Shown one piece after another: positions 2,902 to 64,000 of a stretch of DNA of 64,000 nt. A program made the translations under genes and the position numbers. How positions within the stretch are numbered: position 1 is the first letter of the stretch; each line of letters opens with the position of its first letter. This DNA is from Centroscyllium fabricii (taxonomy: Eukaryota), in the NCBI GenBank assembly GCA_051313645.2, contig JBNRSN020000007.1:154566001-154630000 (forward strand), written 5' to 3'. The notes under the pieces are model-generated. The model made no database searches and was not told the DNA's origin. It saw only the letters and a program-made list of their open reading frames with translations.

Positions 2902-3706
2902 ATAGAGTCTATGACTCTATGACTCTATATTGCATCTGCCACATTTCTGTCCAATCACCCAACCTGTCCAAATCATCCTTGAGTTTCTCGGTATCCTCCT
3001 CGCAGCACACACGCCCACCCAGCTTTGTGTCGTCTGCAAACTTGGAGATATTACATCTAGTTCCCTTATTTAGATTATTAATGTATATTGTGAATAGCTG
3101 GGGTCCAAGGACCGATCCCTGTGGTACTCCACTAGTCACTGCCTGCCACTCGGTAAAAGACCCGTTAATTCCTACTCTCTGCTTTCTGTCCGCCAACCAG
3201 TTCTCTATCCAAGTAAATACCTTGCCCCCAATCCCACGTGCCTTAACTTTACATGCTAATCTCTTATGCGGCACATTATCGAAAGCCTTTTGAAAGTCCA
3301 AATACACCACATCCACTGGTTCTCCCTTATCTATTTTCCCAGTTACATCTTCAAAAAACTCCTGTAGATTAGTCAAGCATGATTTACCTTTTGTAAATCC
3401 ATGTTGACTTTGCCCTATCCTGTCACTACTTTCCAAGTGCTCAGCTATTACATCATTTATAATGGGCTCTAGCATTTTCCCCAGTACCGATATCAGGCTT
3501 ACCAGTCTGTAATTCCCCACTTTCTCTCTGCCATCCTTTTTGAATAGTGGGGTAACACTAGCTACCCTCCAATCCATGGGTACAGTTCCAGATTCCAGCG
3601 AATGTTGGAAGATGATCAGCAATGCATCTACTATTTATAGGGCCACTTCGTTAAGTACCCTAGGATGTACATTATCAGGCCCTGGTGATTTATTGGCCTT
3701 CAATCC

Positions 3707-5362
3707 AGTATTTGTAGGGATATGGTGTTGGGGACCTTGAAGAGATTAAAGACCGACAAATCCCCAGGGCCTGATAATCTACATCCTAGGGTACTTAAGG
3801 AAGTGGCCCTGGAGATAGCAGATGCATTGCTGATCATCTTCCAGAACTCGATAGACTCTGGAACAGCACCCATGGATTGGAGGGTAGCTAATATTACACC
3901 ACTATTCAAAAAAGGGGGTAGAGATAAAGTGGGGAATTATAGACCATTAAGTCTGACATTGGTAGGGGGGAAAATGCTAGAGTCCATTATTAAAGATGTA
4001 ATATCAGTACACTTGAAAAACAGTGACGGGACCGGACAGAGTCAATATGGATTTACAAAAGGTAAATCGTGCTTGACTAATCTACTGGAATTTTTTGATG
4101 ATGTAACTGGTAAAATAGATTGGGGAGAACCAGTAGACGTGGTGTATTTGGACTTTCAGAAGGCTTTCGATAAAGTCCCACATAAGAGATTCGCATGCAA
4201 AATTAAGGCTCATGGGATTGGGGGCAAGGATTTGACTTGGATAGAGAACTGGTTGGCAGACAGAAAACAGAGAGTTGGAATAAACAGGTTGTTTTCCGAG
4301 TGGCAGGCAGTGACTAGTGGGGTACCGCAAGGATTGGTCCTAGCACCCCAGCTGTTCACAATATATATATTAATGATCTGGATGAGGGAATTGGATGTAA
4401 TATCTCCAAATTTGCAGATGACACAAAGCTGGGTGGCGGGGGGTGGGGGGGGGGGGTTGTTATGCTGTGAGGAGGATGTCAAGAAACTCCAATGCGATTT
4501 GGACAGGTTGGGGGATTGGGCAGATACATGGCAAATGCACTATAATGTGGATAAATGTGAGGTTATCCACTTTGGTGGCAAAAACAGGAGGGCAGATCAT
4601 TATTTGAATGGCAATAGATTGGGAGATGGGGAAGTGCAAAGAGACCTGGGTGTTCTTGTGGAGCAGTCACTGAAGGTAAGCATGCAGGTGCAACAGGCGG
4701 TTAAGAAGGCAAATGGTATGTTGGCCTTCGTAGCAAGAGGGTTCGAATATAAGAGCAAGGATGTCTTGCTGCAGCTCTACAGGACCTTGGTGAGACCACA
4801 CCTCGAGTATTGTGTGCAGTTTTGGTCGCCTCATCTGAGGAAGGACATTCTTGCCATTGAAGGAGTGCAGCGAAGATTCACCAGGCTGATACCTGGGATG
4901 GCAGGAATGAAGTATGGAGAGAGATTGAGTCGATTGGGCTTATACGCACTGGAGTTCAGACGATTGAGAGGGGATCTCATCGAAACCTATAATATTCTTT
5001 CAGGCCTGGACAGACTGGAGGCAGGAATGATGTTCCCGATGGTCGGGGAGTCCAGAACCAGGGGCCATAGTCTAAGGATAAGAGGAAAGCCATTTTGGAC
5101 TGAGATGAGGGGGAATTTCTTCACCCAGAGAGTGGTGAACCTGTGGAATTCTCTGCCACAGAGGGCGGTGGAGGCCGGTTCATTGAATATATTCAAGAAG
5201 GAGTTGGATATATTTCTTCAGGCTGAAGGAATCAAGGGATATGGGGAGAAGGCAGGGACAGGGTACTGAATCTGAAAGATCAGTCATGATCTAATTGAAT
5301 GGCGGAGCAGGCTTGAAGGGCCATACGGCCTACTCCTGCTCCTATCTTCTATGTTTCTATGT
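3707..5362 (+). mobile_element. CR1 LINE 3' part inserted antisense into the host CR1
   Basis: RT ORF 3722-5269, 3' UTR, and TTCTATGTTTCTATGT tail. Host CR1 stops at 3706 and resumes at 5363. Confidence 0.92.
3722..5269 (+). pseudogene. CR1 ORF2 reverse transcriptase remnant
   Basis: KSPGPD, NYRPLSL, YLDFQKAFD, GVPQG, RPHLEYCVQFW. The KFADD segment (~4408-4422) is out of frame between compensating frameshifts, the second near the poly-G at 4430-4456. Confidence 0.88.
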
Positions 5363-5853: not shown

Positions 5854-6090
5854 TGTGGTAATTGTGTAATAACCACTGTATATAGTTGCTGGTTCACCTG
5901 TACTGTATTGCAGGCCAGGTCAGCCACACCCCTAACTCCTCCCCTCAGGTCGGTGTATATAGGTGAGCGCTGTCCTGCCCCCGCTCATTCTTCACCTTGA
6001 CCTCATCAGGAGACCAGCTCCATTCTTAGTTAATAAAAGCCTGTAGTTTAGGTAACTACTCGACTTTGTGTATTAATTGACGATACGTCA
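5854..6090 (+). mobile_element. Solo LTR related to the LTRs of Gypsy element 2
   Basis: TGTGGTAA...GATACGTCA, 5-bp TSD ATTCC (5849-5853, 6091-6095), TATATA box and AATAAA. Shares blocks with the reverse complement of 18217-18498. Confidence 0.9.
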
Positions 6091-7351
6091 ATTCCTGTTG
6101 AGTGATCCAACACCGTTAGACTGATCCCACACCTGTAGAGTGATCCTTCAGCTGCAGAGTAATCCCTCACCTATAGCATTATCCGTTACCAATAGACTGA
6201 TCCATCACCAGTAGAGTGATGCTACACATTCAGAGTGATTCCTCACCTGTAGAATGATCACACACCTGTAGAGTGATCCCACACCTGTAGAATGATCCCA
6301 CACCTGTAGAGTGATCCTGCACCTGTGGAGTGATCCCTCACCTGTAGTGTAATCCCACACATGTAGGTAGAGTGACCCCACAGCTGTAGAGTGATGCAGT
6401 ACCAGTAGATTGATCCTTGACCTGTAGAGTGATCCCACAACTGTAGAGTGATCCATCAGCTGTAGAGTGATCCCACACCTGTAGAGTGATCCTGCACCTG
6501 TGGAGTGATCCCTCACCTGTAGAGTGATATCTCACCTGTAGATGTAATCCCTCAACTGTAGAGTGATCCCGAACCTGTAGAGTAATTCCACATCTGCAGA
6601 TTGATCCCTCAGCTGTAGGGTGATCCTACACCTGCAGAGGGATCTCTCACCTATAGAGTGAATTCACACCTGTAGAGAGATCCCTAAACTGTAGAATGAT
6701 GCCACAACTGTAGTGTGATCCCTAACCTGTAGATTGATTCCACACCTGCAGAGTGAACCCACAACAGTAGAGTAATCCCTCAGCTGTAGCTTAATCCCTT
6801 GCCTGTAGAGTGATTCCTGGCCTGTAGAGTGATTCCTGGCCTGTAGAGTGATTCCACACCTGCAGTTAAATTACTCACCTGTAGGGTGAACCCACACCTT
6901 CAAAGGAATCCCTCACCCATAGATTGAACCCACACCTGTAGATCCATTGCACACCTGTAGAATGATCCCTGAACTGCAGGGTGGTCCCACACCGGTACAG
7001 TGATCCCATACCTGTTGAATGATCCACACCTGTAGAGTGATCCCTCACCAGGAGAGTGACCCCACACCGGTAGAGTGATCCCACACCGATAGAGTTAACC
7101 CTCACCTGTAGTATGATCCTTCACCTGTAGAGTGATCACACACATTGTACACTAAAACACTCAACTGTAGAGTTACCCCACACCTGTAGAGTGACAATTC
7201 ACCTATAGAGTTATCCCTCACCTGTAGTGTGATCGCACACCTGTAGGATGGTCCCACACCTGCAGAGGGGTTCCACAACTGTAGTGATTCCACATCTGTA
7301 GAGTGATCCCCAACCTGTTGAGTGTTTCCACCCCATAGATTGATCCTGTTA

Positions 7352-9428
7352 AGAGACTGGGAGGCCTTTAGACCGTAGGGCTAACAGGATGGCCTTCCAG
7401 ACCGTGGCATTATCCCTCTCCACCTGTCCGTTCCCCCGGGGGTTGTAGCTGGTAGTCCTGCTAGTAGCGATGCCTTTCGCTAGCAGGAACTGATGCAGCT
7501 CGTCACTCATGAAGGAGGCCCCCCGGTCGCTATGAATGTAGCTGGGGTAGCCGAACAGGGAGAAAATGCTGTGGAGGGCCCTTAATGACGGTGGCAGAGG
7601 TCATGTCCGGGCAGGGGATGGAGAAGGGGAAACGCGAGTACTCGTCGATAACATTCAGAAAGTACATGTTTCTGTTTGACGAGGGAAGGGGCCCTTTAAA
7701 ATCGACGCTGAGTCGCTCAAAGGGGCGGGTGGCCTTGATCAGGTGCGCCCGGTCTGGCCGAAAAAAGTGCGGCTTGCACTCCGCACAGACCTGGCAGTTT
7801 CTGGTCATGGTCTTGACCTCCTCGATGGAGTAGGGAGGTTGCGGGACTTAACAAAGTGGACCAACCTGGTGACCCCCGGGTGGCAGAGGTCATTGTGCAG
7901 GGTTTGGAGATGGTCCACTTGTGCGCTGGCACATGTACCGCGTGATAGGGCATCTGGGGGCTCATTGAATTTCCCGGGCCGGTACAAAATATCATAATTG
8001 AAAGCGGAGAGCTCAATTCTCCACCTCAGTATCTTGTCGTTCTTGATTTTACCCCGCTCTTTGTTGTTGAACATAAAAGCGACTGAGCGTTGGTCAGTCA
8101 GCAGGGTAAATCATTTGCCGGCCAGGTAGTGCTTCCAGTGTCGCACTGCTTCAACAATGGCCTGGGCCTCCTTCTCGACTGAAGAGTGACGGGTCTCGGG
8201 GCCCTGGAGGGTACGTGAGAAGAAGGCCACGGGTCTGCCCGCCTGGTTAAGGGTGGCGGCCAGGGCAATGTCCGATGCATCGCTCTCGACCTGGAATGGG
8301 ATGGACTCGTCCACAGCGTGCATCGTTGCCTTTGCAATGTCATCCTTAATGCCGCAGAACGCCGCGCGGGCATCTGCTGACAGGGGGAATGAGGTCAATT
8401 TAAGTAGTGGGCGGGCTTTGTCCGCATAGTTGGGGACCCACTGGGCATAATAGGCGAAGAACCCCAGGCACCTTTTGAGGGCCTTGAGGGAGTGGGGGAG
8501 GGGAAGCTCCAGGAGGGGGCGCATGTGGTCCGGGTCGGGACCGATGACCCCATTCTCCACAACACTGCCGAGGATGGCGAGGCGGGTGGTCCTGAACACA
8601 CATTTTTCCGTGTTATATGTCAGGTTCAGTGTTTTGGCGGTGTGGAGAAATTTCTGGAGGTTGGCGTCATGGTCCTGCTGGTCCTGGCCACATATTGGTC
8701 ACGTTATCGAGATACGGAAATGTGGCCCGCAGCCCGTACTGATCGACCATTCGGTCCATCTCCCTTTGGAAGACCGAGACACCATTCGTGACGCCAAACG
8801 GGACCCATAGGAAGTGATAGAGGCGGCCATCAGCCTCGAAGGCCGTATAGAGACGGTCCTCTGGGCGGATGGGGAGCTGGTGATACGCGGACTTCAGATC
8901 TATAGTTGAAAAGACCCGAAACTGCGCGATCTGATTTACAATGTCCGCTATCCGGGGAAGGGGGTAAGCGTCTAACTGGGTGAACCGGTTAATGGTCTGG
9001 CTATAGTCCACTACCATTCGGTTCTTAGCTCCGGTCTTCACCACCACTACCTGCGCCCTCCAAGGGCTGTTACTGGCCTCGATGACCCCCTCCCTCATGA
9101 GGCGCTTCACCTCGGACTTGATGAAGTCCATGTCCCCGGTACTGTAGCGCCTACTTTTGGTGGCGATGGGCTTGCAGTCCGGGGTGAGGTTAGCAAAGAG
9201 CGAGGGAGGGGCGACCTTAAGGGTTGAGAGGCCACAGGTAGCGCGCTGAGGATGCTGCGAGGAGCGCTGGTTGCAGACCGTGAGCGGGGGAAGGGGCCCA
9301 CCGTATGCCATGGTAAAGCTCTGGAGGTGGCACTGGAAGTCCAGGCCCAGTAATAATGGAGCGCAGTGCTGCGGCAGCACGAATAATTTGAAATTGCTAA
9401 AGTGCACGCCCCGTACCGTTAGAGTCAC
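7352..9428 (-). pseudogene. pol: pol (RT-RNase H-integrase) of Gypsy 1, several frameshifts
   Basis: ORF pieces 8667-9428, 8111-8599, 7805-8074 and 7530-7808 with IDLKSAYHQ, PFG, YLDN, SVDFKGP, IDEYSRF. Confidence 0.9.
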
Positions 9429-10612
9429 CGCGCAACGTCCGCAGATTCCACGGATTCCGACTTTGATGCCATAGAGATCTTTTGGCTCGCCGGCGTAACC
9501 TTAAGAGAGAGGCGCCTTACCGTTTCTGGGTGGACGAAACTCGCCGTACTCCCGCTGTCGAAGAGGCACTCGATGCTCCGCCCGTTCACTTCCACTGTCA
9601 TCATCGATCTGCTGAGTGGTTGTGCCTTGTTCTTATCCAAGTTGATGGATGCCAGTGTAGGGTCGGTCGAGTCGTTTTGATCCGTTGAGAGGTCGTCTGG
9701 GGCCTGGTCCCAAGATGGCTGCCGCCATGTGTTGTACTGCGGAAGGGGTGGCTGAGACCAAGATGGCGTCTGCTGCCACGCGGTGGGCTGTGTTGAAGAT
9801 GGCTGTGTCCAAGATGGCTGCCCCCATGGCCCACATGCGGCACTGCCCGGTTTCGATTGCAGCGTTGCAGTTGCTCTGCAGACTTTGGCATAGTGTCCTT
9901 TCTTGCCGCATTTCGAGCAGGCCGCGTCTTTTGCAGGGCAGTTCCGTCTCGGGTGCTGAGACTGCCCACAGAAGTAACATTTGGCCGTCTTAGAATGAGC
10001 GGCCGCAGTCATCTCTTCCGCCGGTCGCGGCTCCGGCGATGTCCAAGTTGTCGGGGCTGGGCCCGCGTAGTTGCCGAAATATGATGACAGATTCAGCGAT
10101 GCCACATCCAGTGCTTTGCCCAGATCCGCTGTCGCCTGCAGGTCAAGGCCGTTCTGTTCTAACAGCCTTTGGCGAATATAGTCCGACCTGAGGCCAGTTA
10201 CATACGCGTCCCTGATCAGGCTGTCCACGTGGACCTGGGCCGACTGCGATCTGCAGTTACAGGCCTGGGAGAGTACTCTCAGCGCGCGTATGAACTCCAC
10301 GCTGGACTCACCTGGTTGCTGTCTTCTGGTAGCCAGGAGGTGTCTGGCGTGGACGATGTTGGGTGCCCGGTTGTACTCCGCTTTGAGGATCCAGATTGCA
10401 TCTAGGTACGATGATGCGTCTACGATCATGGAGTATACCTGAGGGCCCACCCGGGCATTGAGGAGATGCCGTTTGTCCTCCTCGGTCGTGACGACCGCCA
10501 CGTTCACATTGATGAACGCATCAAAGCAGTCGAACCAGTGCGTAAAGGTATTTGATGCACCTGGTGTCCGGGGTTCCAGCTCGAACGTTGCTGGTTTGAG
10601 CATCAATTTCAT
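9425..10612 (-). pseudogene. gag: gag-protease of Gypsy 1
   Basis: ORF with CYFCGQSQHPRRNC and CSKCGKKGHYAKVC, then LFDSGS. First ATG at 10612, ~22 nt after the LTR. Confidence 0.88.
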
Positions 10613-10634
10613 CGTCAAATTTAGCTAATAAAAT

Positions 10635-10923
10635 TGTTACCGAATTAACGACCTCGGAGACGAGTTATTAAGAGGTGAAAAATACAGGCTTTTATTAGCT
10701 AAAGTTGGACATGCACCAGCTAGTCGACCGTCCCCAGGAATGGCCGCGGAAAGGGAGACGGCCGCTTATGTACCTGGTCCTGGGAGGGAGGAGTCACAGG
10801 CGGTGCCAGCATGGGCATGTCCAGGTGATCACACACAAATAACTATAATACAACATGGTTTAAGGGTGGTTACAGTGAGTTACAATAATATACAGATATA
10901 TACATAAAGAGTGGTTTACCACA
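10635..10923 (-). repeat. 5' LTR of Gypsy 1 (289 bp)
   Basis: Sense TGTGGTAA...GGTAACA. TATA-like TACATAAG at ~10766-10773. AATAAA at ~10691-10696. Confidence 0.88.
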
Positions 10924-11876
10924 GATCCCACATCTTTAGAGTAATCCCACACCTGTAGACTGATCACTAACCTGTAGAGTGATCCCACATCTGTAGAGTG
11001 ATCCCTAAAATGTAGAGTGATTCCACTCCTGCAGATTGATCCCTCACCTGTAGGATGATCCCACACCTGCAGAAGGATCCTTCACCTGTAGAGTAAACTC
11101 ACACCTGTAGAGAGAACCCTAACCTGTAGTGTGATTCCACACCTGTAGTGTTATCCCTATACTGTAGCATGATTCCACACCTGTAGATTGATCCCTCACC
11201 TGTAGAGTGATCACTCACCTGAAAAGTGATCCCATGTGTGCAGAGTGATCACCCACCTGTAGAGTGATCCCACACTTGTAAAGTGATCCCACATGGGTAG
11301 AGTGATCCCTCATCTGAAAGTGATCCCTCATCTGTAAAGTGATCCCTAGCCTGTAGAGTGATCCCTCACCTGTAGTGTGATCACACACCTGTAGAATGAT
11401 GCCACACCTGTAGAATGATCCTCACCCACAGAGTGATCCTCACCTGAAGAGTGATCCCACTAATGTAGAGTGTTCCCACACCTGTAGAATTATCCCTAAA
11501 CTTTAGAATGATTCCACACATGTAGAGTGAATCCACACCTGTAGAATGATCAGTAACCAGTAGAGTGATATCACACCTGTAGAGTGATTCCACACCTGTA
11601 GAGTGTTTCCACACCTGTAGAGTGAATCAGATGTAGAGTGACCCCACACATATATGTTCCCACCCCTGTAGAGTGATCACACATATATAGAATGGTCCCT
11701 CACCAGTAGAGTGATCCCACACCTATAGAGTGCTCCCCCACCTGTACAGTGATCCCTCACTTGTAAAATGATCCCCCACCTGTAGAGTGATTCCTTATCT
11801 GTATAGTGATCCCTCACCTGCAGAGTGAGTCCTCCCCTTTAGTGTGACCCCACTCTGGTAAATTGCTCCCCCACCT

Positions 11877-14800
11877 TTTTTTTTGTCCGTTTCTATTGGA
11901 AACCGCGCCGGATTTGGGAGCACGCAGGACTGCAGGAAACGCAGCTTGTGGCGGCCCGGCCCCCGACGCCGCCTGGTACAGCCGGCCCTGACCCCCGGCA
12001 CCGCCCGGGACACCACCCGGTACAGCTGGCCCGGCCCCGACACCGCCCGGTACAGCCGACACCGACCCCGACAACGCCCAGGACACCGACACTGCCCGGT
12101 ACATCCTTTGACAAGATGGCGGCGCGCATAGACGCAGCGGCTCAGTGCTCTCCTTTTCGGTGCTTCGTTTGGCTGTTTGTGTGTGTGTTGATACTTGTCC
12201 CGACAGCATCCTGCTGGGTGAACAACGTCTACAGCCGGCACGATCTCCTAGGAATAGGATTACATAGCGAGCGGGATGTTACAGCCGAGTTTCTCCGCTC
12301 CCGCGGCATCCCGGTGGATATCGGCAGGCGCCCCGGCTCTCCGTGGATTACCATCTCCGCGGGAAGGCGACGAAGGTGGCGCAGGGAAAGGAGGCAAAAG
12401 CGAGGCTGCAGAGCCGGCGTGCTGGTGAGGCTACGGAGACGGCCACACAAACCGCCGCTTCCTAGTGTCTTCCTCGCCAACGCAAGATCCCTCGCTAACA
12501 AAATGGATGAGCTGAAACTACAGGTTGCAATGAACAACATGCTGAAGGACAGCTGCATTCTGCTCTTCACAGAGACCTGGCTTCATTCATCCATTCCAGA
12601 CACAGCTATTGAGCTAGCAGGCCGCACAGTACACCATCATGACAGGACCAGGGACTCCGGTAAGAGCAGAGGAGGGGGGTTATGCATCTATGTGAACAAC
12701 AGCTGGTGTACAAATACTAAGACTGTAAGCAGCCACTGCTCCCCGGACCTGGAGTATGTGACTGTTAAATGCAGGCCCATATATCTTCCTCGGGAGTTCA
12801 CTGTTGTCATGATAACTGCTGTGTATATTCCACCAGATGCTAATGCTAGCTCGGCCCTTGGACATTTACATGAAACCATTAGCAGTCAACAGAGTATGTA
12901 TCCTGAGGCTGTTCACATTATTGCAGGGGACTTTAACCATGCTGATTTAAAGGCAGTGCTCCCCAAATTCCATCAACACGTTAAGTGTGCTACCAGGGGA
13001 GCAAATACACTGGACAAGGTCTACTCTAACATCAAGCTGGGCTTTAGGGCTAAGCCACTACCACACCTGGGCCAGTCAGACCACATGTCCCTGCTCCTGA
13101 TTCCAGCATATACCCCCCTCAGGAAAAGTGCTCTTACCATATCTAGATCTGTAAAAACCTGGCCCGAAGGTGCCTTTCAACAACTGCAGGACTGCTTTGA
13201 GTCAACAAACTGGGATGTCTTCGAACATCAGGACCTGGAGCAGAACACAACAGCTGTCCTGGGATACATCAAGTACTGCATGGACACTGTCACTGTGGAC
13301 AAGTGCATCCGGGTTTATCCCAACAGAAAGCCCTGGATGACAAAAGAAGTGCAGTGCCTGCTCAGGGAGAGGAACACCGCCTTCAGGTCTGGTGATGGGG
13401 CACTATACAGTGCTGCCAGAGCCAATCTGAAGATGGGCATCGGAGCGGCCAAGGCTGCTTACAGAAGGAGGATTGAGGACTGTTTCCAGAGCAACGACTC
13501 CAGGCAGGTGTGGCAGGGGGTCCAGCACATCACTAACTACAGACCCAGCAACCTCTCGGCTGATGACGGTGACGCCTCACTGGCAGAGGAGCTGAACCGC
13601 TTCTTCGCCCGCTTTGAGGTGGAGTCACCGGAGGTAGCCACACTGAACCCACCAGCCCACAGCAGTTATGTCCTCACGGTGGAGGAGTATGAGGTGAGGC
13701 GCACGCTGAGGGCCGTGAACCCGAGGAAAGCTGCGGGACCTGACGGCGTCTCGGGACAGGGGCTGAGGGTCTGTGCAGATCAGCTGGCAGGGGTCCTCAC
13801 CAAGATCTTCAACCAGTCCCTGTCTCAGGCGGCTGTCCCACCCTGCCTGAAGGCCTCCACAATCGTCCCACTCCCGAAGAAGAATGCCATTAGCAGCCTG
13901 AACGACTACCGTCCAGTAGCACTTACACCTATTATCATGAAGTGCTTCGAGAAACTGGTCCGGTCCCACATCATCTCAAATCTCCCACCCAGGTTTGATC
14001 CTCACCAGTTCGCCTACAGAGCTAAGAGGTCCACGGAGGACGCCATAGCCACAGCTCTCCACTTTGCCATGTCCCATCTGGAGCAGCAGGGGAGCTACGC
14101 ACGGCTGCTCTTTGTGGACTTCAGCTCGGCATATAATATCATCCTCCCCAACAGACTGGTGACCAAACTGACACACCTGGGAATATCCCACTCCATCTGC
14201 CTCTGGGTTCAGGACTCCCTGTCGAATCGCTCCCAGAGGGTGAGGGTAGGCCCCCACATCTCCTCAGACCTCAGCCTCAGCACTGGCTCCCCTCAGGGCT
14301 GTGTGCTGAGCCCCCTACTCTACACCCTCTACACCCACAGCTGCACCCCCGCCCACTCCAGCAACATCATCATCAAGTTCGCTGATGATACTACTGTGGT
14401 GGGGCTCATCTCTGGGGGGGATGAGTCCGCATACCGGGATGAGGTGGAGCAGCTGTCAGTGTGGTGTACAGAAAACAACCTGGTCCTGAACACTACTAAG
14501 ACTAAGGAGCTGATTATAGATTTTGGAGGAAAAGAACGAACATTCAGCCCCTGTTCATCGGCGGGGACTGTGTGGAGAGGGTCTCAGATCTCAAGTTTCT
14601 GGGTGTTTACATAGAGGATGACCTGAAATGGAGCGTCAACACCACTGCTATCACCAAGAAGGCACAGCAGAGACTGCACTTCCTGAGGGTTCTCAGGAGT
14701 TACCACCTCACACAAAAACTGCTTGTGTCCTTCTATCGTTGCTCCATAGAGAGCATTCTGACCTACTGCATCTGTGTGTGGTTCTCCAGCTGCACAGCTG

Positions 14801-15290
14801 CAAACAGGACAGCGCTCCAGAGGGTCGTCACCACAGCCCAAAAGATTACTGGCTGCCCTCTCCCCTCCCTGGAAGATCTGCACAGCTCCCGCTGTCTCAG
14901 GAAAGCACAGAGTATTCTTAGGGACGCATCTCACCCCGGACATTCCCTCTTTGAACTGCTGCACTCGGGCAGACGCTTCAGGACACTGAAAGCACGGACC
15001 AATAGATTAAAGAACAGTTTTAATGTCAGAGCCATAACCGCACTAAACACAGAAAAAAGCTTGAACATCTTGTAAATATTTTGATCTGGATCGTGCAATA
15101 CCTGTAGAATGTGAATGTGTGTGTGTAATGTGTTTCCTGTCTCCTCTTTGAAGCTGCTAATTATTTATTTCATAGTTTTTAATTATTTGTTTTTTTAGAT
15201 AGTTTTATGTTTCTCTTTCTTGCAATTTTAAGGATTGCATTTCAATTTTGTTGTACTTGTACAATGACAATAAAGACTTATTATTATTAT
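11877..15290 (+). mobile_element. Near full-length Rex1/Babar-type LINE
   Basis: APE domain (LANARSL, FTETWL, GDFNH, LDKVY, SDH) plus RT (PQG, KFADD). 3' CAATGACAATAAAG and (TTA)n tail. Possible TSD ACCT (11873-11876, 15291-15294). Confidence 0.88.
12116..15075 (+). pseudogene. Rex1-type endonuclease-reverse transcriptase ORF with one frameshift
   Basis: Open from ATG 12116 to ~14525. An apparent 1-bp deletion separates it from the C-terminal ORF ending at 15075 (…IQPLFIGGDCVERVSDLKFLGV…). Confidence 0.88.
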
Positions 15291-17628
15291 ACCTGTAGAC
15301 GGATCCCTCACCTGTAGAGTGATCCCTCACCTGAAGAGTGATGCAGATGTAGAGTGATCCCACACATATAATATGTTCCCACACCTGAAGACTGATCCAA
15401 CACCTGTAGAGTGGTCCCACATATATAGCATAAACCCACACCTGTACATTGATCCCTCATCAGTAAATTGATCTCAGACCTGTAGAGTACTCCCCCACCT
15501 GTAGAGTGCTCCCCACCTGTAGAGTGATCCCCCACCTGTAGAGTACTCCACCACCTGTAGAGTGATCCCCACCTGTAGAGTGCTCCCTCACCTGTAGAGG
15601 GCTCCCTCACCTGTAGAGTGATCCCTCACCTGTAGAGTGATCCCTCACCTGTAGAGTGATCCCTCACCTGTAGAGTGATCCCCACCTGTAAAGTGCTCCT
15701 CCACCTGTAGAATGCTCCCTCACCTGTAGAGTGATCCCTCACCTGTAGAGTGCTCCCTCACCTGTAGAGTGCACCCTCACCTGTAGAGTGATCCCCCACA
15801 TGTAGAGTGATTCCTCACCTGTAGAATGCTCCATCACCTGTAGAGTGATCCCTCACCTGTAGAGTGATCCCTCACCTGTAGAGTGCTCCCTCACCTGTAG
15901 AGTGCTCCCTCACCTGTAGAGTGATCCCTCACCTGTAGAGTGATCCCTCACCTGTAGAGTGATCCCTCACCTGTAGAATGCTCCCTCACCTGTAGAGTGA
16001 TCCCTCACCTGTAGAATACTCCCTCACCTGTAGTGATCCCTCACCTGTAGAGTGATCCACCACCTGTAGAGTGCTCCCCCACCTGTAGAATGCTCCCTCA
16101 CCTGTAGAGTGATCACTCACCTGTAGAGTGCTCCCTCACCTGTAGAGTGATCCCTCACCTGTAGAGTGATCCCTCACCTGTAGGGTGATCCCCCACCTGT
16201 AAAGTGCTCCCCCACCTGTAGAATGCTCCCTCATCTGTAGAGTGATCCCTCACCTGTAGAGTGCTCCCTCACCTGTAGAGTGCTCCCTCACCTGTAGAGT
16301 GATCCCTCACCTGTAGAGTGATCCCCCACCTGTAGAGTGCTCCCCCACCTGTAGAGTGCTCCCTCACCTGTAGAGTGATCCCCCACCTGTAGAGTGATCC
16401 CCCACCTGTAGAGTGCTCCCTCACCTGTAGAGTGATCCCCCACCTGTAGAGTGATCCCCCACCTGTAGAATGCTCCCTCACCTGTAGAGTGATCCCCCAC
16501 CTGTAGAGTGATCCCTCACCTGTAGAATGCTCCCTCACCTGTAGAGTGATCCCTCACCTGTAGAGTGATCCCTCACCTGTAGAATGCTCCCTCACCTGTA
16601 GAGTGCTCCCTCACCTGTAGAGTGATCCCCCACCTGTAGAGTGATTCCTCACCTGTAGAATGCTCCCACACCTGTAGAGTGATCCCTCACCTGTAGAATA
16701 CTACCTCACCTGTAGAGTGATCCCTCACCTGTAGAGTGATCCGCCACCTGTAGAGTGCTCCCCCACCTGTAGAATGCTCCGTCACCTGTAGAGTGATCCC
16801 TCACCTGTAGAGTGATCCCCCACCTGTAGAGTGATCCCTCACCTGTAGAGTGATCCCTCACCTGTAGAGTGATCCCTCACCTGTAGAGTGCTCCCCCACC
16901 TGTAGAATGCTCCCTCACCTGTAGAGTGATCCCTCACCTGTAGAGTGATCCCCCACCTGTAGAGTGCTCCTCCACCTGTAGAATGATCCCTCACCTGTAG
17001 AGTGATCCCTCACCTGTAGAATGCTCCCTCACCTGTAGAGTGATCCCTCACCTGTAGAATGCTCCCCCACCTGTAGAGTGATCCCTCACCTGTAGAGTGC
17101 TCCCCCACCTGTAGAGTGCTCCCTCACCTTTAGAATGCTCCCTCACCTGTAGAATGCTCCCTTACCTGTAGAGTGATCCCCCACCTGTAGAGTGCTCCCC
17201 AACCTGTAGAGTGATCCCTCACCTGTAGAATGCTCGCTCACCGGTAGAATGCTCCCCCACCTGTAGAGTGATCCCCCACCTGTAGAGTGATCCCTCACCT
17301 GTAGATTGCTCCCTCATCTGTAAACTGATCCTACGTGGGTGGAGTGATCCCACATCTGTAGTGACACCTTATCTGTAAAATGATCCCTAGTCTGCATTGT
17401 TATTGCTCGGCTGTAGAGTGATCCCTAATCTGTAGAGTGATCACATACCTGTAGAGTGATCCCACACCTGTAGAGTGATCCTCACCTGTAGAGTGATCCT
17501 CTCCTGATGAGTGATTCCACTACTTTAGAGTGATCCCAAACCTGTAGAATGATCCATAACCTGTAGAGTGATTCCACACCTGTAGAATGATCCCACACCT
17601 GTGGAATGATCCCTAACCTGTAGAGTGA

Positions 17629-18075
17629 CAATGCTCAATGGACGGGACACATTAAACGCATGCCTGATATGTGACTCCCAAAACAAGTGCTCTACTCGGA
17701 GCTCCGGCCTGGCAAGAGAGCCCCAGGTGGGCAGAGGAAATGCTTCAAAGCCTCAAAGCTTCCTTGAAAAAGTGTAACATCCCCACCGACAAGTGGGAAT
17801 CCCTGGCCCAAGACTGCACAAAGTGGAGGAGATGCATCCGGGAAGACGCCGAGCACCTCGACTCTTCGCCGGGAGCAAGCGAAAGCCAATCGTAGGCACC
17901 ACAAGGAGCTCACGTCAACCCAAGCACCCCACCCACCCGCCCCTTCAACCACCGTCTGCCCCACCTGTGACAGGGACTGTAGGTCCCGCATTGACTCATT
18001 AGTCACCTGCGAACTCATTATTAATGTGGAAGCAAGTCATCATCTATTCCGAGGGACTGCCCAAGAAAGAGAGAG
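17629..18075 (+). mobile_element. RTE-clade LINE 3' fragment
   Basis: Decayed WTGHIKRMP..LPKQVLYSEL..RAPGGQRK..LKASLKKCNI..CPTC..SHLRTH C-terminus with an AG-rich tail. Confidence 0.8.
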
Positions 18076-18498
18076 ATTCTACACCTGTAGCTTGATCTCA
18101 CACCTGTAGAATAATCCCTAACCAGTAGAGTGATTCCACACTTTTAGAGTGACTCCGCACCTGTAGCGTGATCCCACACCTGTAGAATGGTCCCTAAGCT
18201 GTAGAGTGATTCCACATGACGTATCGTCAATAAGACAAAGACGAGTAGTTACCTTAACTAGAGGCTTTTATTCACTTTACAATGGAGCTACTCTCCAGTC
18301 GAACATTGAGTACATAATGAATGGGGGCAGGTCAGACCTCACCTATAAGGCGCTCACCTGAGGGGAGGAGTTAGAGGTGTGGCTGACCTGACCTCGCGAC
18401 AGTGTCGTTATACAAAACTATATACAATGCACCCAGCCACTATACATGCTGGTCTGTAGTCTGCTCAACTATATATACTTGTAATCATGATTACCACA

Positions 18499-18512
18499 TT
18501 CACCCCTTCTTT
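18499..18512 (-). promoter_or_regulatory. Polypurine tract of Gypsy 2
   Basis: Sense AAAGAAGGGGTGAA immediately before the TG of the 3' LTR. Confidence 0.85.
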
Positions 18513-18597
18513 GAAAATTGAGTATGGCGGGGTGAATGGACAGAACCTGTTAATGCAAAGAAAGAAAAAAAATTGTATATTATTGTATGAGTCCAGC

Positions 18598-21500
18598 TCA
18601 ACAGTTCACAATGAGTCTCTCCGGCGGTCGTGTCTGCCTTGAGGACCGCCGGGGTTCTGGTAGCGGCGCTGGTGCCGGTTGTGGCGGCGGGGCCGGGTCC
18701 TCCGGCAGCTGTGTCTGTGGTGTGGCATCTGGTTCTTGGTCCTCAACTGATAGTGTCGGGGGCCCCGGTGTGTGCGTGTGCCTAGGCCAGGATCTGGTGG
18801 GTTGTGGTTGGTGTGTAGGCCAGTGGTCGGTAGGCGGTGGCTGGTCGGGCTGAGGCTCGACCAGGGGCTCTGCTGTGGTGCTCCCGGCGGGTGCTAGGTC
18901 CCTGATGGAAACTGTGTCCTCGCGCCCGTCTGGGAACTGCACGTAGGCGTACTGCGGGTTGGCGTGCAGCAGCTGCACCTTTTCCACCAGGGGGTCGGTC
19001 TTATGGCCGCGGACATGTTTTCTAAGTAAGACCAGCCCCGGCATCGTGAGCCACAGTGGGAGTGCTGTCCCCGAAGTCGACTTCCTGGGGAATGAAAACA
19101 GCAAGTCGTGAGGTGTGGCATTTGTAGCCGTACACAGCAGAGAACGGATGGAGTGGAGGGCGTCTGGGAGGACTGCCTGCCAACGGGACACTGGAAGGCC
19201 TCTGGACTTCAGGGCCAGGCTGACCGCCTTCCAGATGATCCCGTTCTCCCTTTCTACCTGGCCGTTCCCCCGGGGGTTGTAACTGGTCGTTCTGCTTGAG
19301 ACAACCCTTTTCTGAAGCAGAAACTAACGCAGTTCGTCGCTCATGAACGATGTCCCCCGGTCGCTATGGATGTAGCTGGGGAGACCGAAAATGGCGAACA
19401 CCGTGGTGAAGTGTTTGATCACCGTTGCGCACATCATATCTGGGCAGGGGAAGGCAAAGGGGAAGCGGGAGAACTCGTCTACGACCGTGAGAAAGTACGA
19501 GTTGCGGTCGGTGGAGTGGAGGGGGCCTTTGAAGTCCACGCTTAGACGTTCAAAGGGGCGGGTGGCCTTAATGAGGTGTGCCGTGTCTGGCCTGTAAAAT
19601 TGGGGTGTGCACTCGGCGCAAACAGGGCACTCTCAGGTCATAGCCTTGATCTCCGTGATGGAGCAGGGGAGGCTACGAGATTTAACGAAATGGGCAAGTC
19701 TGGTGATACCCGGGTGGCAGAGGCGATCGTGGAGTTCCTTCAGCCGGTCTAGCTGGGCACTGGCGCACGTTCCACTGGACAGTGCGTCCGGGGGTTCATT
19801 GAGTTTGCCTGGTCGGTAAAGAATGTCGTACTCGTAGGTTGAGAGCTCGATCCGCCATCGCAGGATCTTATCATTCTTGATTTTACCCTTTTGTTTATTG
19901 TTAAACATAAAAGCTACCGACCGTTGGTCGGTGAGCAGGGTAAAACGCTTACCGGCCAGGTAATTACGCCATTAGCGCACGGCCTCCACGATGGCCTGGG
20001 CCTCCTTTTCCACTGCAGAGTGGCGAGTTTCGGGTCCCTCTATGGTGCGGGAGAAAAACGCTATGGGCCTGCCTGCCTGATTCAGGGTGGCGGCAAGGGC
20101 AAAGTCCGAAGCGTCACTCTCCACCTGGAAAGGGATGGACTCATCAACGGCGTACATGGTCGCCTTGATAATATCTTCCTTGATCCGGGCGAACGCCGTT
20201 TGGGCTTCTACCGAGAGGGGGAAGACGGCAGCCTTAAGGAGCGGTCTGGCCTTATCCGCGAACTGGGGAACCCATTGCGCGTAATAGGAGAAAAATCCCA
20301 GACATCTACTCAGGGCTTTGGGGTTGTGAGGTAGGGGCAGTTCCTGTAAGGGGCGCATACGCTGTGGGTCGGGGCCAAGGACTCCGTTTTCCACCACGTA
20401 TCCGAGGATGGCGAGCCGATCTGTACTAAAGATGCACTTGTCTTTATTGTACGTGAGATCGAGCCGTTTTGCCGTGTGGAGGAATTTAGCCTGGTTGGCA
20501 TCATGGTCCTGCTGGTCATAGCCGCAGATGGTCACGTTGTCCAGGTAGGGGAAAGTGGCCTGCAACCCATTCTGGTCAACCATGCGGTCCATCTCCCTTT
20601 GGAATACCGACACTCCGTTGGTCACGCCGAAGGGGACCCGGAGGAAGTGGTAGAGCCGACCGTTCGCCTCGAAGGCGGTGTACAGGCAGTCGGCTTTCCG
20701 GATCGGGAGTTGGTGATATGCCGACTTAAGGTCGATTGTGGAGAAAACCTTATACTGGCCGATCTGGTTAACCATTTCCGAGATGCGGGGAAGGTGGTAG
20801 GCGTCGAACCCGGTGTAGCGGTTAACGGTCTGGCTGTAGTCGATCACCATCCACAGTTTCTCGCCAGTCTTAACCATTACGACCTCGGCCCGCCAGGGGC
20901 TGGTGCTGGCTTCAATTATCCCCTCCTGCAGCATACGCCCGACCTCCGACCTGATAAATGCCGGATCCCCCGCACTGTAACGCCGACTCCTGTTAGCAAT
21001 GTGTTTGCAGTTGGGGTCGAGTTTGGCGAACAGCGAGGGGGGGTCGACTTTCAGGGTGGATAGGCCGCAAGTCGGGCTCTGCTTTAGGAAATGATTGTCC
21101 CGGCTACTGACGGCGAGGGGGGGCAGGGTCCCGCCGAACTCCATTGTCACGCTCTTCAGGTGGCACTGGAAATCCAGTCCCAGTAAGACTGGGGTGCACA
21201 ACTGCTAGAGTACGTACAGTTTAAAATTACGGTACACACAGTCCCTGACTGTGAGCGTGATGGAGCAGTAGCCGGTGACGTCCGCCGTGTGCGACTTTGA
21301 AGCAAGGGAGATTTGGTAGTGTCGGGGTGAATGAAGCTCTCTGTGCTTCCGGTGTCGAACAGGCAGTTGGTGATATGGCCGTTAACTTTAATCCCCATCA
21401 TGGAATTTGATAGGGTGTGCGGCCTAACCTGGTCGACCGTGGCTGAGGCCGAAGTGTGTGTGTGTGGGCCCTCCGCTAGCTGGGGCCGTGCACAAGATGG

Positions 21501-22766
21501 CGGTGCCCGTGATTCGCACGCGGCCGACCGCGGTGGACAAGATGGCGGCGCCGGGGGGTCGCACATGGCTGGCCATTGAAGACAAGATGGCGGCGCCCGT
21601 GATTCGCACGCGGCCGACCGCAGTGGACAAGATGGCGGCACCGGGGGATCGCACATGGCTGGCCGCTGAAGACAAGATGGCGGCACCCGTGATTCGCACG
21701 TGGCGGGCCGCGGTGGACGCCGTGGCGGTGCCCGTGGTTCGCACGCGGCGGACCGCGGTGGCCAAGTTGGCGGCGCCCGTGATTCGCACGCAGCGGGCCG
21801 CGCTGGGTGAGTTGCTGGCGTTGTGGGGTCGCCCATGGCCGGCCGCGGCCGTCATTGGCGTGGCGGTGCCCGTGCCGTGTGCGCGGCCGGCCTCTGCCAT
21901 ATCGGGGTGGGAGATGGGGGCGCTTGTAATCTACCCCCGGACCGCTGCTTACCTGAGGCCAAGGGATGGCGTTGGAGCTCTCGCAGGCCGCGCTGTTGTG
22001 TCTGGAGCTGGTCGCTGGGGCCGATTTGCAGACCCTGGCGTAGTGTCACTTTTTTACTGCATTTCTCGCAGGTCGCGGTCCTCGCAGGGCATTTCGCTCG
22101 CGGATGCAGTCCCTGGCTGCAGAAGTAGCATTTTCTGTCCGCTGGCGTCTTCGCAGCTGCCGCTGCCAGTGTGGGGATCTCTACCTGTCGTGGGACCGCC
22201 CAGGAATCAAGGGTGGCGTGTGGGCCTTGGCCGCTATACGCCTCTAGCCTGCGGCGTGCTCCATCCACCGCGTTAGAGATGGATATCGCCTCCTCCAGCG
22301 ATAAAGTCTCTTTTTCCAGCAACCGCTGGCGGGCCTGGCTGGATCTGATCCCCGTCACGTAGGCGTCTCGAACGAGGAGATTCTTCTCCTCCTGCGCCGT
22401 TCGTGCCTTGCATTCACAGGCCCGGGCGAGGGCTTGAAGCGCCAACAAATATTGTTCATTAGACTCACCGAGCCATTGTTGTCTGGTCGCCAGCACGTGT
22501 CTGGCATAGACCGAGTGGACCGGGCGCACGTAGCATGCCTTCAGTTTGTCCACGGCCTCTTTGTATGTTGTTGCATCGCAGATGAAGGAGTACACCCGGC
22601 TGGAGATCCTTGATGAGAGAACGTGGAGTTTGTTCCCGTCAGTCGTCGCCTTGGCGGCCGTCATGTATGCCTTGACAAGGCTGAACCAATGTTCAAACGT
22701 ATTGGCGGCATCTGGATCCTGTGGACTAATATCCAGCTTTTCGGGTTTCACAGCGCCGCTCTCCAT
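18598..22766 (-). pseudogene. gag-pol of Gypsy 2, with stops and frameshifts
   Basis: ORF pieces 21852-22766 (gag), 21156-21836 (repeat linker and LFDTGS), 19972-21201 (RT/RH, YLDN), 19633-19908, 19324-19539 (IN core), 18598-19191 (IN C-terminus, Pro-rich, no chromodomain). Confidence 0.92.
21493..21805 (-). repeat. 45-bp coding tandem repeat (~7 units) in the gag-protease linker
   Basis: CAAGATGGCGG starts at 21493, 21538, 21583, 21628, 21673, with degenerate copies at 21718 and 21763. Encodes 15-aa CESRAPPSC.. units. Confidence 0.9.
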
Positions 22767-25111
22767 TTCGAAAATTTAAAGTGTATAAAATTGACGTATC
22801 ATCAATAAGACAAAGACAAGTAGTTACCTTAACTAGAGGCTTTTATTCACTTTACAATGGAGCTACTCTCCAGTCGAACATTGAGTACTGAATGAATGGG
22901 GGCTGGTCAGACCTCACCTATAAGGTGCTCACCTGAGGGGAGGAGATAGAGGTGTGGCTGACCTGACCTCGCGACAGTGTCATTATACAAAACTATATAC
23001 AATGCACCCAGCCACTATACATGCTGGTCTGTAGTGTGCTCAACTATATATACTGGTAATCATGATTACCACACCACACCTGTAGATTGATTCCATACCT
23101 GTAGACTGATCCCTCAACTCTAGAGTAATTCCACACCTGTAGAGTGATTCCACACCTGTAGATTGAATCCCACATCTGTAGAGTGATCCCACAACTGTGG
23201 AAATATCCTGCACCAGTAGAGTGATCCCACACCTGTCGAGTGATCCCACACATGTTGTGGGATCACTCACATGTAGATTAATCCCACACATTTAGAGTGA
23301 TCCCACACCTGTAGAGTGATCCCACACCTGTAGTCTGATCCCTCAACTGTAGAGTAATTCCACACCTGTGGTGATTCCACACCTGTAGATTGAATCCCAC
23401 ATTTGTAGTGATCCCACAACTGTGGAAAGATCCTGCACCAGTTGAGTGATCCCACATCTGTAGAGTGATCCCACACATGTTGTGTGATCACTCACATGTA
23501 GATTAATCCCACACCTTTAGAGTGATCACACAATTGTAGAGTGATCCCACATCTGTAGATTGATCCATCACCTGTAGATTGATCACTCACATGTAGAGAT
23601 TCCTCACCCATAGAGTGATCGCTTAACTGTAGAGTGATGCCACACCTGCAGATTAATTCCACATCTGTAGAGTAATACATCAGCTATAAAGTGATCACAC
23701 ACCTGTTGTGTGATCCTACAACTGTAGAGTAACCCCTAACCAGTAGAGAGATCCCACAGCTGTAGAGTGATCACTTATCTGTGGAGTGACCCCACACCTG
23801 TAGAACAATCCCTTACCTGTAGAGTGACCCCACAGCTTTAGAACAATCCTAATCCTGTAGAATTATCCCTCAGCTTTAGAGTGACCCCACACCTGTAGTG
23901 AGATCACTCAACTGTATTGTGAACGCTGTCCTCTAGATTCATCCTCATTTGTAGAGTGATCCCTCACCTGTAGAGATATCCCTCAGCTTTAGAGTGATGC
24001 AGTAACAGTAGCGTGTTCCCTTACCTGCAGAGTGATCCCACAGCTGTAGAGTGTGCCACACCTGCAGAATGATCCCTCAGCTGTAGGTTGATCCCACACC
24101 TGTAGAGTGATCCATCACATGTAGAGTGCGTCCAAACCTGTAGAGTGATCCCACAGCTGTCGAGTGATCCCTTGCCTGTAGAGCCATCCCTCACCTGTAG
24201 ATTGATCCCACACCTATAGAGTGATCCCTCACCTGTAGAGTGGTTCCAAACCTGTAGTGATCCTATAGCAGTAGAGTGATGCAATACCAATAGAGTGATC
24301 CCTTACCTGTAGATTGATCCCACACCTGTAGAATGATCCCACACCTGTAGAGGGGACCCTCACCTGTAGGGTGAACCCACACCTGTGGAGGGATTCCACT
24401 TATTTAGAGTGATCCCTAAACATAGAAACATAGAAGATAGTAGCAGGAGTAGACCATTCGGCCCCTCAAGCCTGCTCCGCCATTCAATGCAATCATGGCT
24501 GATCATTGAATTTCAGTACCCTGTCCCTGCCTTCTCCCCATATCCCTTGATCCCTTTAACCTTAAGAAATATATCCAACTCTTTCTTGAATATATTTAAT
24601 GAATTAGCCTCTACTGCCTTCTGTGGTAGAGAATTCCACAGGTTCACCATTCTCTGGGTGAAAAAATTCCTCCTCACCTCTGTCCTAAATGGCTTACTCC
24701 TTATCCTTAGACTGTGACCCCTGGTTCTGGACTTCTGGACTCCCCCCTCCCCCCCCCACCCCCCGCATCAAGAACATCCTTCCTGCATCTAGTTTGTCCA
24801 GTCCTGTTAGAATTTTATAAGTTTCAATGAGATCCCCTCTCATTCTTCTAAACTCCAGCGAGTATAAACCCAATTGACCCAATCTCTCCAACATCATTCC
24901 TGCCATCCCAGGTATTAGCCTGGTGAATCTTCGCTGCACTCCTTCTGTGGCAAGATCATCCTTCCTTAGATAAGGCAACCAAAACTGTACACAATATTCA
25001 AGATGTGGTATCACCAAGGCCCTGTAAAACTGCAGCAAGACATCCTCGTTCCTGTACTCAAACCCTCTCGCTACAAAGGCCGAGCATTTTAAGAGGAAGA
25101 ATACAAAAAAA

Positions 25112-25486
25112 GGACGACCCGGTGGCGCAGTGGTTAGCACTGCTGCCTCGCAATAACGAGCTCCTGGGTTCGAATCCTGCTTGGCCCGGGACCTCTCTGC
25201 GTGGAGTTTGCACGTTCTCCCCGTGTTCGTGTGGGTTTCCTCCGGGTACTTTGGTTTCCTCCCACCACCCAAAGACATGCAGGTTAGGTGAATTGGAGAT
25301 ACTAAAAATTGCCCATGAGTATGTGTGTGAGATATAGTTCTTAGAGTTGGGGGTGTCGGGGGAGGTGGGGAGAGGGTAGGAGGGGGGTGCTGGGTTTGGA
25401 TGATCGGCCGTGATCCCGTCGAAGTGGCGGAGTGGGCTCGAGGGGCCGAATGGCCTACTCCTGCTCTTATCTTCTATATTTCTGTG
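25112..25486 (+). mobile_element. tRNA-derived V-SINE with CR1-type tail (subfamily A)
   Basis: A box TGGCGCAGTGG 25123-25133, B box GGTTCGAATCC 25167-25177, V-domain GTGGAGTTTGCACGTTCTCCCCGTG..GGGTTTCCTCCGGG, CR1 3' end. Confidence 0.88.
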
Positions 25487-25879
25487 ATAGGGTTAAAGTA
25501 GATAGCTTGACTTGAATAGCGATCAATAGCACAGGCGTGATGGGTCAAAAGGTCTCCTCGTGTGCTGTACTCTCTCTAATTCTGTCAGACGGCTGATTTT
25601 TGACGGTACAGCTGAGCGAAGAATTTTGTGACTGATGAAAGTAGCTCTCTTCGCGCTTCTGGGGAAGTGCTATTGGTGTGGCCATTGCCGCTGAACCGCG
25701 ACACAGTGACCAGACTGTTATTTCACAATCATGAATTCCGCCAGCCAAACCCTTGAGCTGCAGCCATGCAGTGCGCTGCCAGTCACTGCTTATTCTGTCC
25801 GCTGCCCCCTCTGTTGTCGAACTGGTGGGGATTGATTACCTCGCACTTCTCATCTCACTGAAAACCAGATCACTTCATT

Positions 25880-26380
25880 CTGAAATAACAATGGGGAGCA
25901 TCCCAAGAAACTCAGCAGGCCGGGCGGCATCGGTGGAGAGAGAGACAGAGCTGATGTTTCGGGTCGATGACCTTTTTTCAAAACTAGAGAAGCTGGGAGG
26001 GTGGATCAATAAAGCTATTTGAAAGAAAGAAAGAAAGAAAGGATAGATTTAAAGCTTGTGGGGGCTGGGGAAAGGGGGGGAGGGGGAGGGGCTGAAAGAA
26101 CAACGGAAAGATCAGCGACAGGCTGGAAGGTGGGGGGTGATAAGAGATATGCGGAGAAATTGAAGGAACACATGATGGCTCTGGAATGGTGTGAACAGCT
26201 TTAGCAGAGTAAAGAAAAAAGCCCAGACGAAAGTGTGGATTGAAAAAAAAGAAAAAATATATATCTGTAAAAAAAACGTGATGGGGGCCGAGGTTATGGT
26301 CGGAGGTTGTTGGGCTCTGTGTTTGGTCCGGAGGGCTGTGGAGTGCCTGAGCGGGGGATGGGGTGCTGTTCCTCGAGTTT
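25880..26380 (-). mobile_element. Degenerate Penelope-like element fragment
   Basis: ACTCAGCAGG..GGCATC.GTGGAGAGAGA..GTTTCGGGTCGATGACC and GTCCGGAGGGCTGT..GGTGCTGTTCCTC resemble shark Penelope-like repeats (from recall, not searched). Confidence 0.55.
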
Positions 26381-26381
26381 A

Positions 26382-26790
26382 GGGCGGCACGGTGGCATAG
26401 TGGTTAGCACTGTTGCCTTACAGCACTGGAGACCCGGGTTCAAATCCAGCCTCGGGTACTATCTGTGTGGAGTTTGCACATTCTCCCCGTGTCTGCGTGG
26501 GTTTCCTCCGGGTGCTCCGGTTTCCTCCCACAGTCCAAAGATGTGCGGGTTAGGTTGATTGGCCAGGATAAATTGACCCTTAGTGTTAGGGGGATTGAAT
26601 ATGTGGGGTTACGGGGATAGGGTGGGATATGTGTTGATGCAGGCTCGATCGGGATCGAGGGATATGGGGAGAGGGCAGGGACGGGGTGCTGGGTTTGGAT
26701 GATCAGCCATGATCTCATTGAATGGCGGAGCAGGCTCGAAGGGCCGAATGGCCTACTCCTGCTCCTATCTTCTATGTTTCTATGTTTCTA
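26382..26790 (+). mobile_element. HE1-like V-SINE with CR1-type tail (subfamily B)
   Basis: GGGCGGCACGGTGGCATAGTGGTTAGCAC head, B box GGTTCAAATCC, V-domain, (CTATGTTT)n tail. Confidence 0.9.
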
Positions 26791-28672: not shown

Positions 28673-29052
28673 AACACAGAAAACACAGACACAGAAGATA
28701 GGGGCAGGAGTAGGCTATTCGGCCCTTCAAGCCTGCTCCTCCATTTTGATGAGATCATGGCTGATCATCCAAACCCAGCAACCCCCTCCTATGCTCTCCC
28801 CATATCCCCCAACACCCCCAACTCTAAGAACTATATCTCACACACATACTCGTGGGCAGTTTTTTTTAATATCTCCAATTCACCTAACCTGCATGTCTTT
28901 GGGTGGTGGGAGGAAACCAGAGTACCCGGAGGAAACCCACATGAACATAGGGAGAACATGCAAACTCCACGCAGAGAGGTCCCAGGCCAAGCAGGATTCG
29001 AACCCAGGAGCTCCTTATTGTGAGGCAGCAGTGCTAACCACTGTGCCACCGT
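28673..29052 (-). mobile_element. V-SINE subfamily A, second copy
   Basis: Reverse complement aligns along its length with 25112-25486. Inserted directly in the satellite. Confidence 0.9.
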
Positions 29053-53472: not shown

Positions 53473-53493
53473 TCATGTGTAGAGTGATCCCAC

Positions 53494-63973: not shown

Positions 63974-64000
63974 TGTAGAGTGATGACAAACCTGTAGAGT

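Follow-up and report, generated by a model that had tools for sequence, protein, structure and literature searches.

The two Ty3/Gypsy retrotransposons described here, Gypsy 1 and Gypsy 2, carry YLDN as motif C of their reverse transcriptase (RT). This is the normal inherited motif of both families and of many of their relatives, and we consider it likely that the RT works with two aspartates and that the fourth residue of the motif serves as a hydrogen-bonding helper. According to our phylogenetic reconstruction both elements fall into a Gypsy clade spread across the metazoans, and this fourth position has changed between Asp and Asn at least 8–11 times within it.

Results and Discussion

The YLDN motif in the window

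Both elements were found in a stretch of 64,000 nucleotides (the window, Table 1). An earlier note on this DNA had claimed that the two copies share YLDN while the first catalytic Asp is kept, and re-reading of the codons confirmed this. Motif C is encoded by TAT CTC GAT AAC in Gypsy 1 and by TAC CTG GAC AAC in Gypsy 2, in both cases in the context FPYLDNVT, and the Asp of motif A is intact in both as part of IDLKSAYHQ. In a HMMER alignment YLDN of Gypsy 2 falls onto YLDD of the Ty3 RT (PDB 4OL8) and IDL onto LDL, showing that YLDN is the true motif C. The predicted structure of the Gypsy 2 RT (pLDDT 94.6), for which the Ty3 RT is the best match (TM 0.76), has a normal LTR RT fold as judged from this model. 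The RTs of Gypsy 1 and Gypsy 2 are identical at 302 of 405 nucleotides and 106 of 135 amino acids and share only 65 of 135 third codon positions (48%), thus they represent distinct families. Both window copies are dead, their frames being broken by stops and frameshifts. For Gypsy 1 a single LTR is present; the element is frameshifted just past the YLDN motif and truncated at its 3' end, where it runs into a 19-bp satellite; Gypsy 2 is full length. A tRNA-Cys called by ARAGORN at 44919-45005 (minus strand) is composed of satellite units and very probably false, and an Rfam scan of the window gave no match.

Table 1: Features of the 64,000-nucleotide window.
Feature	Position	Strand	Remarks
Gypsy 1 RT motif C YLDN	8703..8714	-	matched to Ty3 YLDD via Gypsy 2
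Gypsy 1 motif-A catalytic Asp (IDLKS)	8898..8900	-	codon GAT
Gypsy 1 5' LTR	10635..10923	-	289 bp, TG...CA
Gypsy 1 LTR stretch over AATAAA, complementary to primer-site position	10690..10707	-	score 15, 0/100 shuffles as high
Gypsy 1 tRNA-less primer-site position and short leader up to gag ATG	10610..10634	-	
Gypsy 1 pairing region	10610..10707	-	
Gypsy 1 gag-pol (twin CCHC Gag, protease, RT, RNase H, integrase)	7352..10612	-	frameshifted
Gypsy 2 RT motif C YLDN	20536..20547	-	
Gypsy 2 motif-A catalytic Asp	20731..20733	-	codon GAC
Gypsy 2 5' LTR	22792..23073	-	282 bp
Gypsy 2 tRNA-less primer-site position and leader to gag ATG	22763..22791	-	pairs with LTR poly(A) region, one mismatch
Gypsy 2 pairing region	22763..22854	-	
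Gypsy 2 gag-pol	18598..22765	-	stops and frameshifts
Gypsy 2 polypurine tract AAAGAAGGGGTGAA	18499..18512	-	
Gypsy 2 3' LTR	18217..18498	-	272/282 identical to 5' LTR
Gypsy 2 target duplication TGTGG	23074..23078 and 18212..18216		5 bp
GC-rich 45/90-bp tandem repeat	21492..21802		Gag to protease interval of Gypsy 2
19-bp satellite array	6094..64000		unit like CCTGTAGAGTGATCCCTCA; hosts all retroelement insertions
More homogeneous satellite block	15291..17628		
Solo LTR related to Gypsy 2	5854..6090	+	185/228 aligned bases; ATTCC 5-bp duplication; in satellite
Non-LTR retrotransposon, endonuclease and RT (FADD motif)	11843..15075	+	923-aa open frame; satellite insertion
625-bp inverted repeat	3081..4368		arms 86% complementary, 38 nt apart; among CR1-like fragments

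Genome-wide state of the motif

Exact patterns in the context FPYL-xx-[VI]T were counted across the 7.21-Gb assembly and gave 226,770 matches for YLDN and 312 for YLDD, corresponding to a YLDN share of more than 99.8% of the two together. The controls for dead mutants gave 511 (YLDS) and 900 (YLGN) matches in the same context and the reversed pattern gave none. As YLDD is no commoner than other single A-to-G changes, no YLDD derivative of the Gypsy 1 and Gypsy 2 families has spread. A query containing the motif would be biased, and copies were therefore also searched with the sequence upstream of the motif, the motif itself being omitted. In these sets, each of which counts the copy from the window itself and one pair of probable duplicates, an Asn codon is present at position 4 in 30/30 copies of family 1 and in 27/30 of family 2, where the other three show one Asp, one Lys and one gap.

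In order to look at young copies we picked 40 stretches for long open frames, 37 of them with a readable motif. Asn was present in 37/37 (35 YLDN, one YFDN and one YLGN). True LTR pairs were detected in 29 stretches with identities of 89.5–99.7%, and all seven copies with LTRs about 99% or more identical have YLDN; no identical LTR pair was present among the 40, the best one showing one mismatch in 290. Thus, where the earlier note had called for a search of young copies for YLDD, young copies with LTRs up to 99.7% identical turned out to be YLDN and no YLDD was found among them. The YLDN families were thus mobile recently. Target duplications of 5 bp are present in other genomic copies too.

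Both window copies being dead and GAC GAC to GAC AAC being a CpG transition, one might think that YLDN arose in inactive copies through CpG decay or some other kind of drift, and CpG decay had indeed been proposed for Gypsy 2. For the Gypsy 1 and Gypsy 2 families this is refuted by the motif-blind copies, the young copies and the genome counts, and YLDN is also found in intact invertebrate ORFs, leaving this origin with next to no probability. As both families and their chondrichthyan relatives have Asn, the explanation is also superfluous for both copies. What CpG mutation may do is skew how often D-to-N changes arise in hosts that methylate their DNA. It is also hard to believe that Asp is restored after transcription, either by protein deamidation or by A-to-I editing of AAY, which would then be read as GAY and according to the genetic code is one such event away from an Asp codon. 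Edited RNA would yield YLDD DNA, whereas YLDD matches are fewer than those of comparable A-to-G changes, and Asn-Val is not known as a fast deamidation context.

If all YLDN copies were full length they would fill approximately 1 Gb, an estimate that has to be read with the fact that many copies may be partial and that the pattern misses mutated ones. A separate genome pattern matched about 120,000 junctions of LTR end, leader and ATG.

Selection on the YLDN RT

Across 230 RT codons of the 37 copies pN/pS is 0.11–0.14 within families for pS above 0.10 and 0.29 for pS below 0.10, and 0.17 across families. Choosing long frames favours well-kept copies, but the across-family value cannot come from such a choice. 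These ratios indicate that the YLDN RT is under purifying selection, which argues for action in cis. They also bear on the idea that the YLDN polymerase is dead and that the elements depend on a YLDD helper for copying in trans, as could be imagined from the equivalent yeast mutants, which do not transpose (PMC5371799, PMC2148107). The genome does contain a YLDD family from this clade (28 of the first 100 entries in a list of 478 matches). However, its RT is only 55% identical to that of Gypsy 2, it has at most a few hundred copies compared to ~227,000, and the other two aspartates are fixed in the N families, so that a helper of this kind is very improbable. The family, represented by loci L241–L250 (e.g. 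G000:C1:258583700-258592700), is 61–67% identical in its RT to other database proteins and is possibly a separate, horizontally acquired lineage.

A Gypsy clade switching between Asp and Asn

The closest named proteins to the Gypsy elements are from sharks and rays, which points to a cartilaginous fish as the apparent host. A first homologue search gave 99 DN, 16 DD and 5 other sequences (n = 120) and a search for longer proteins 89 DN and 30 DD (119 new proteins), whereas a YLDD member as query gave 96 DD and 24 DN (n = 120), showing that the proportions depend on the query. The pooled set comprises 491 proteins, 215 of which are within the clade and 900 aa or longer. In these 215, position 4 of the motif is D in 124, N in 90 and Y in one, position 3 is D in all of them, and the motif-A residue is D in 214 with the remaining one not covered. 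The D-E-D-D of RNase H is kept, and Gypsy RTs from outside the clade have D at position 4 in 40/40 cases. Clustering at 90% identity resulted in two D clusters, with 13/13 covered members being DD, and eight N clusters, in which 69/70 covered members end in DN and the other one in EN. Since the state is fixed inside such clusters, D and N characterise whole families and do not represent sporadic mutations. The D and N proteins nearest to each other share 86% identity.

Phylogenetic trees were constructed with the four motif columns dropped. In a FastTree of 177 full RT-RNase H rows from 387 proteins, partial and non-DD/DN rows being excluded, we counted 17 D/N changes, 11 of which are forced by supported branches, and an IQ-TREE of 43 rows picked to include D/N sisters showed 12 changes with 8 forced. 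A single origin of the D/N state was seen in none of 200 IQ-TREE bootstrap trees. With distant Gypsy RTs as the root, D occupies the basal branches, and some of the D families lie inside N groups, which suggests both gains and reversions. The proposal of a lineage-fixed natural variant in the earlier note is supported, as Asn is common to both families, to other shark and ray proteins and to many invertebrate families, and even too modest, as position 4 switches over the whole clade. No relative was found in the viral contigs searched, and the ESM Atlas and a viral fold library returned generic RVT_1 clusters and generic RTs, respectively.

Compensation and a possible advantage of Asn

Three conserved aspartates have been stated for all RTs (PMC2148107). 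In Ty3, D151 and D213 are needed for metal binding and D214 is auxiliary; D214N keeps its polymerase activity in vitro with reduced processivity and does not transpose, and all mutants of the triad are lethal for transposition (PMC5371799). The earlier note had stated that Ty1 D211N is active in vitro yet does not transpose, which agrees with PMC2148107; Ty3 D214N is the closer precedent. According to PMC2148107 kpol of Ty1 D211N is down 223-fold, the mutant prefers Mn2+ and binds PPi more tightly, its transposition is abolished, and suppressors in RNase H restore 5–10% of transposition. As the same change blocks transposition of both Ty1 and Ty3, some compensation must exist in the YLDN elements.

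No partner residue tracking D or N was found over 11 independent pairs, the best column differing in about 5 of 11; raw associations of columns with D/N vanished under independent pairs. The whole clade, D and N members alike, differs from other Gypsy RTs in several places: WRAQ stands for the usual W.SP, motif B reads G[VLI]TN[GA]V, RNase H has TDQ instead of TDH, and DYS.T goes along with the loss of a conserved Arg. We infer that this clade-wide background in fingers, motif B and RNase H may have made position 4 permissive, a reading in which the co-occurrence in one clade counts as a single evolutionary event.

It could also be that Asn is adaptive and not merely tolerated, tuning rate, processivity, metal choice or pyrophosphate handling, and that it is favoured in certain hosts or entrenched in the shark-ray branch. 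The Mn2+ preference and tighter PPi binding of Ty1 D211N would fit to this, as would the absence of an amplified YLDD derivative (312 matches compared to 511 and 900 for the controls) and the sampled rows of the chondrichthyan branch, all of which are N (10/10 and 8/8 in two trees) despite the low third-position identity of Gypsy 1 and Gypsy 2. Named N members come from sharks, rays, corals, an anemone, a mussel and Trichinella, and named D members from insects, crustaceans, a sea cucumber and Trichuris. In favour of an adaptive Asn, Asp is present in 10/10 listed named insect and crustacean members (P0129, P0361, P0384, P0536, P0540, P0547, P0562, P0563, P0575, P0627), while the named cnidarian, mussel, shark and ray members are N. 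However, the distribution over hosts is partly tied to the phylogeny, D occurs in a member from a marine echinoderm and N in one from a terrestrial nematode, a D family resides in the same host genome, and sister families with D and N reach 86% identity without a partner change. The contrast between Asp in insects and crustaceans and Asn in cnidarians, molluscs, sharks and rays may reflect phylogeny or host CpG methylation, and we regard an adaptive Asn as unlikely, while giving it more weight than editing or a helper.

Pairing of the primer site with the poly(A) signal

After the 5' LTR neither a tRNA-type primer site nor, specifically, a TGG primer site was found. Instead, 13–15 nt at this place are complementary to an LTR stretch ending in the AATAAA signal. 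At 40 junctions, among which related copies are not independent, 503 of 520 pairs are Watson–Crick pairs, compared to a mean of 426 and a maximum of 450 when the partners were shuffled. Compensatory changes occur at several positions, and the covariation extends over families and phyla. In this geometry the 3' end of the primer would sit one base from the LTR, which fits self-priming. The poly(A) signal at the 5' end would be masked by the pairing as well, a candidate for a rival or additional function.

The earlier note had further suspected a link between YLDN and this unusual priming, which is not supported. Members with YLDD carry the same pairing, namely L195 and L207, which passed the pairing test, L165 and L186, judged by eye, and the small YLDD family of this genome, thus Asn and the priming mode are separate traits of the clade. 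The relatives of invertebrate type were taken from metagenome contigs (80 loci, 41 of them without a gag start) and showed the pairing in 19 of 25 DN loci scored. Among 12 DD loci scored, several of them at wrong starts, true pairing was seen in two and two more passed at wrong positions. Our literature search on self-priming found nothing on this clade.

An RT that probably works with two aspartates

The reading with two aspartates is favoured by Asn being fixed in families, by about 227,000 motif copies, by recent insertions and by purifying selection on the RT, as well as by two fixed aspartates next to a position 4 that is limited to D or N and switches repeatedly between them. In such an enzyme catalysis would be carried out by the motif-A Asp and the first Asp of YxDx, and the fourth residue would be a hydrogen-bonding helper, a role that either Asp or Asn could fill. 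The YLDN enzyme would then be active in cis. The site might have become permissive through the changes that D and N members share (fingers: PWRAQ and DYSQT; motif B: G[VLI]TN[GA]V; RNase H: TDQ), and the elements likely prime on their own RNA whatever the D/N state.

More tentatively, and as a proposal we would not yet bet on, this old animal-wide Gypsy clade might represent undescribed natural RTs freed from the third catalytic Asp, with a rewired background of fingers, motif B and RNase H in which the elements stay mobile whether position 4 is Asp or Asn. Its Asn form might have built approximately 10–15% of a 7-Gb vertebrate genome, and the hairpin used for priming would at the same time conceal the element's 5' poly(A) signal. 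No description of a YxDN RT was found in the literature covered by our search, which did not extend to figures and most subscription papers, and entries in Repbase or GyDB may show the motif without comment; probably we are dealing with an undescribed natural YxDN variant of a known element type. The natural Asp and Asn families offer matched enzymes for probing the role of the residue and its compensation. For annotation it follows that YxDN elements should not be labelled as dead, as here they are among the most successful elements of the genome.

Comparison with known elements

By structure Gypsy 1 and Gypsy 2 are Ty3/Gypsy elements. They have TG...CA LTRs, a 5-bp target duplication, a polypurine tract and the order protease-RT-RNase H-integrase, and their RT is nearest to that of Ty3; what deviates from the typical Ty3/Gypsy element is YLDN in place of YxDD. 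Twin CCHC knuckles in Gag are known from the Mag lineage, and the Gag of Gypsy 1 shares this feature with CYFC..H....C and CSKC....H....C, to which the Pfam zf-CCHC match is weak. Elements of the Cigr-1 clade have short LTRs, one ORF of ~1,200 aa and a Mag-like Gag. Compared by description only, the relatives found here are alike, having short LTRs and ORFs of ~1,150–1,300 aa. Cigr-1 belongs to Ty3/Gypsy and has been described from tunicates, molluscs and annelids (PMC6238403, PMC8556966).

Other clades fit less well. CsRn1 elements are characterised by a CHCC signature in Gag and a tRNA-Trp primer site (PMC2582038), whereas the Gag of Gypsy 1 is CCHC and a TGG primer site is lacking. The Saci2/lennie clade, with similar size and a single ORF, has a 4-bp target duplication and a tRNA primer site (PMC12471100), in contrast to the 5-bp duplications and the self-complementary primer site observed here. 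Closest in priming are the self-priming chromoviruses of the Tf1/sushi type, which likewise have no tRNA primer site and pair the primer-site position with their own 5' RNA (PMC3601003). Unlike in these, the pairing described here covers the poly(A) signal. As to the chromodomain of Tf1/sushi, no Pfam family was detected in the last 241 aa of the integrase tail of Gypsy 2 (one dead copy). Tf1/sushi elements are further characterised by an RNase H cut that makes the primer out of the transcript's 5' end.

Asn as the natural form of the last acidic residue of motif C is known from GDN in the polymerases of non-segmented negative-strand RNA viruses and from ADN in the birnavirus polymerase. These enzymes are RNA-dependent RNA polymerases and not RTs, and their Asn is fixed and not known to switch. 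Among retroelements, Ty1 D211N represents the same substitution in YxDD and is partly rescued by second-site changes (PMC2148107), but Ty1 belongs to the Copia superfamily, the mutant is engineered and no equivalent suppressor was identified in the elements studied here. The Ty3 RT, the nearest solved structure, is from the same superfamily and its D214N affects the same position; there, however, Asn is a laboratory mutation lethal for transposition, whereas in the elements described here it is the natural state and has been massively amplified.
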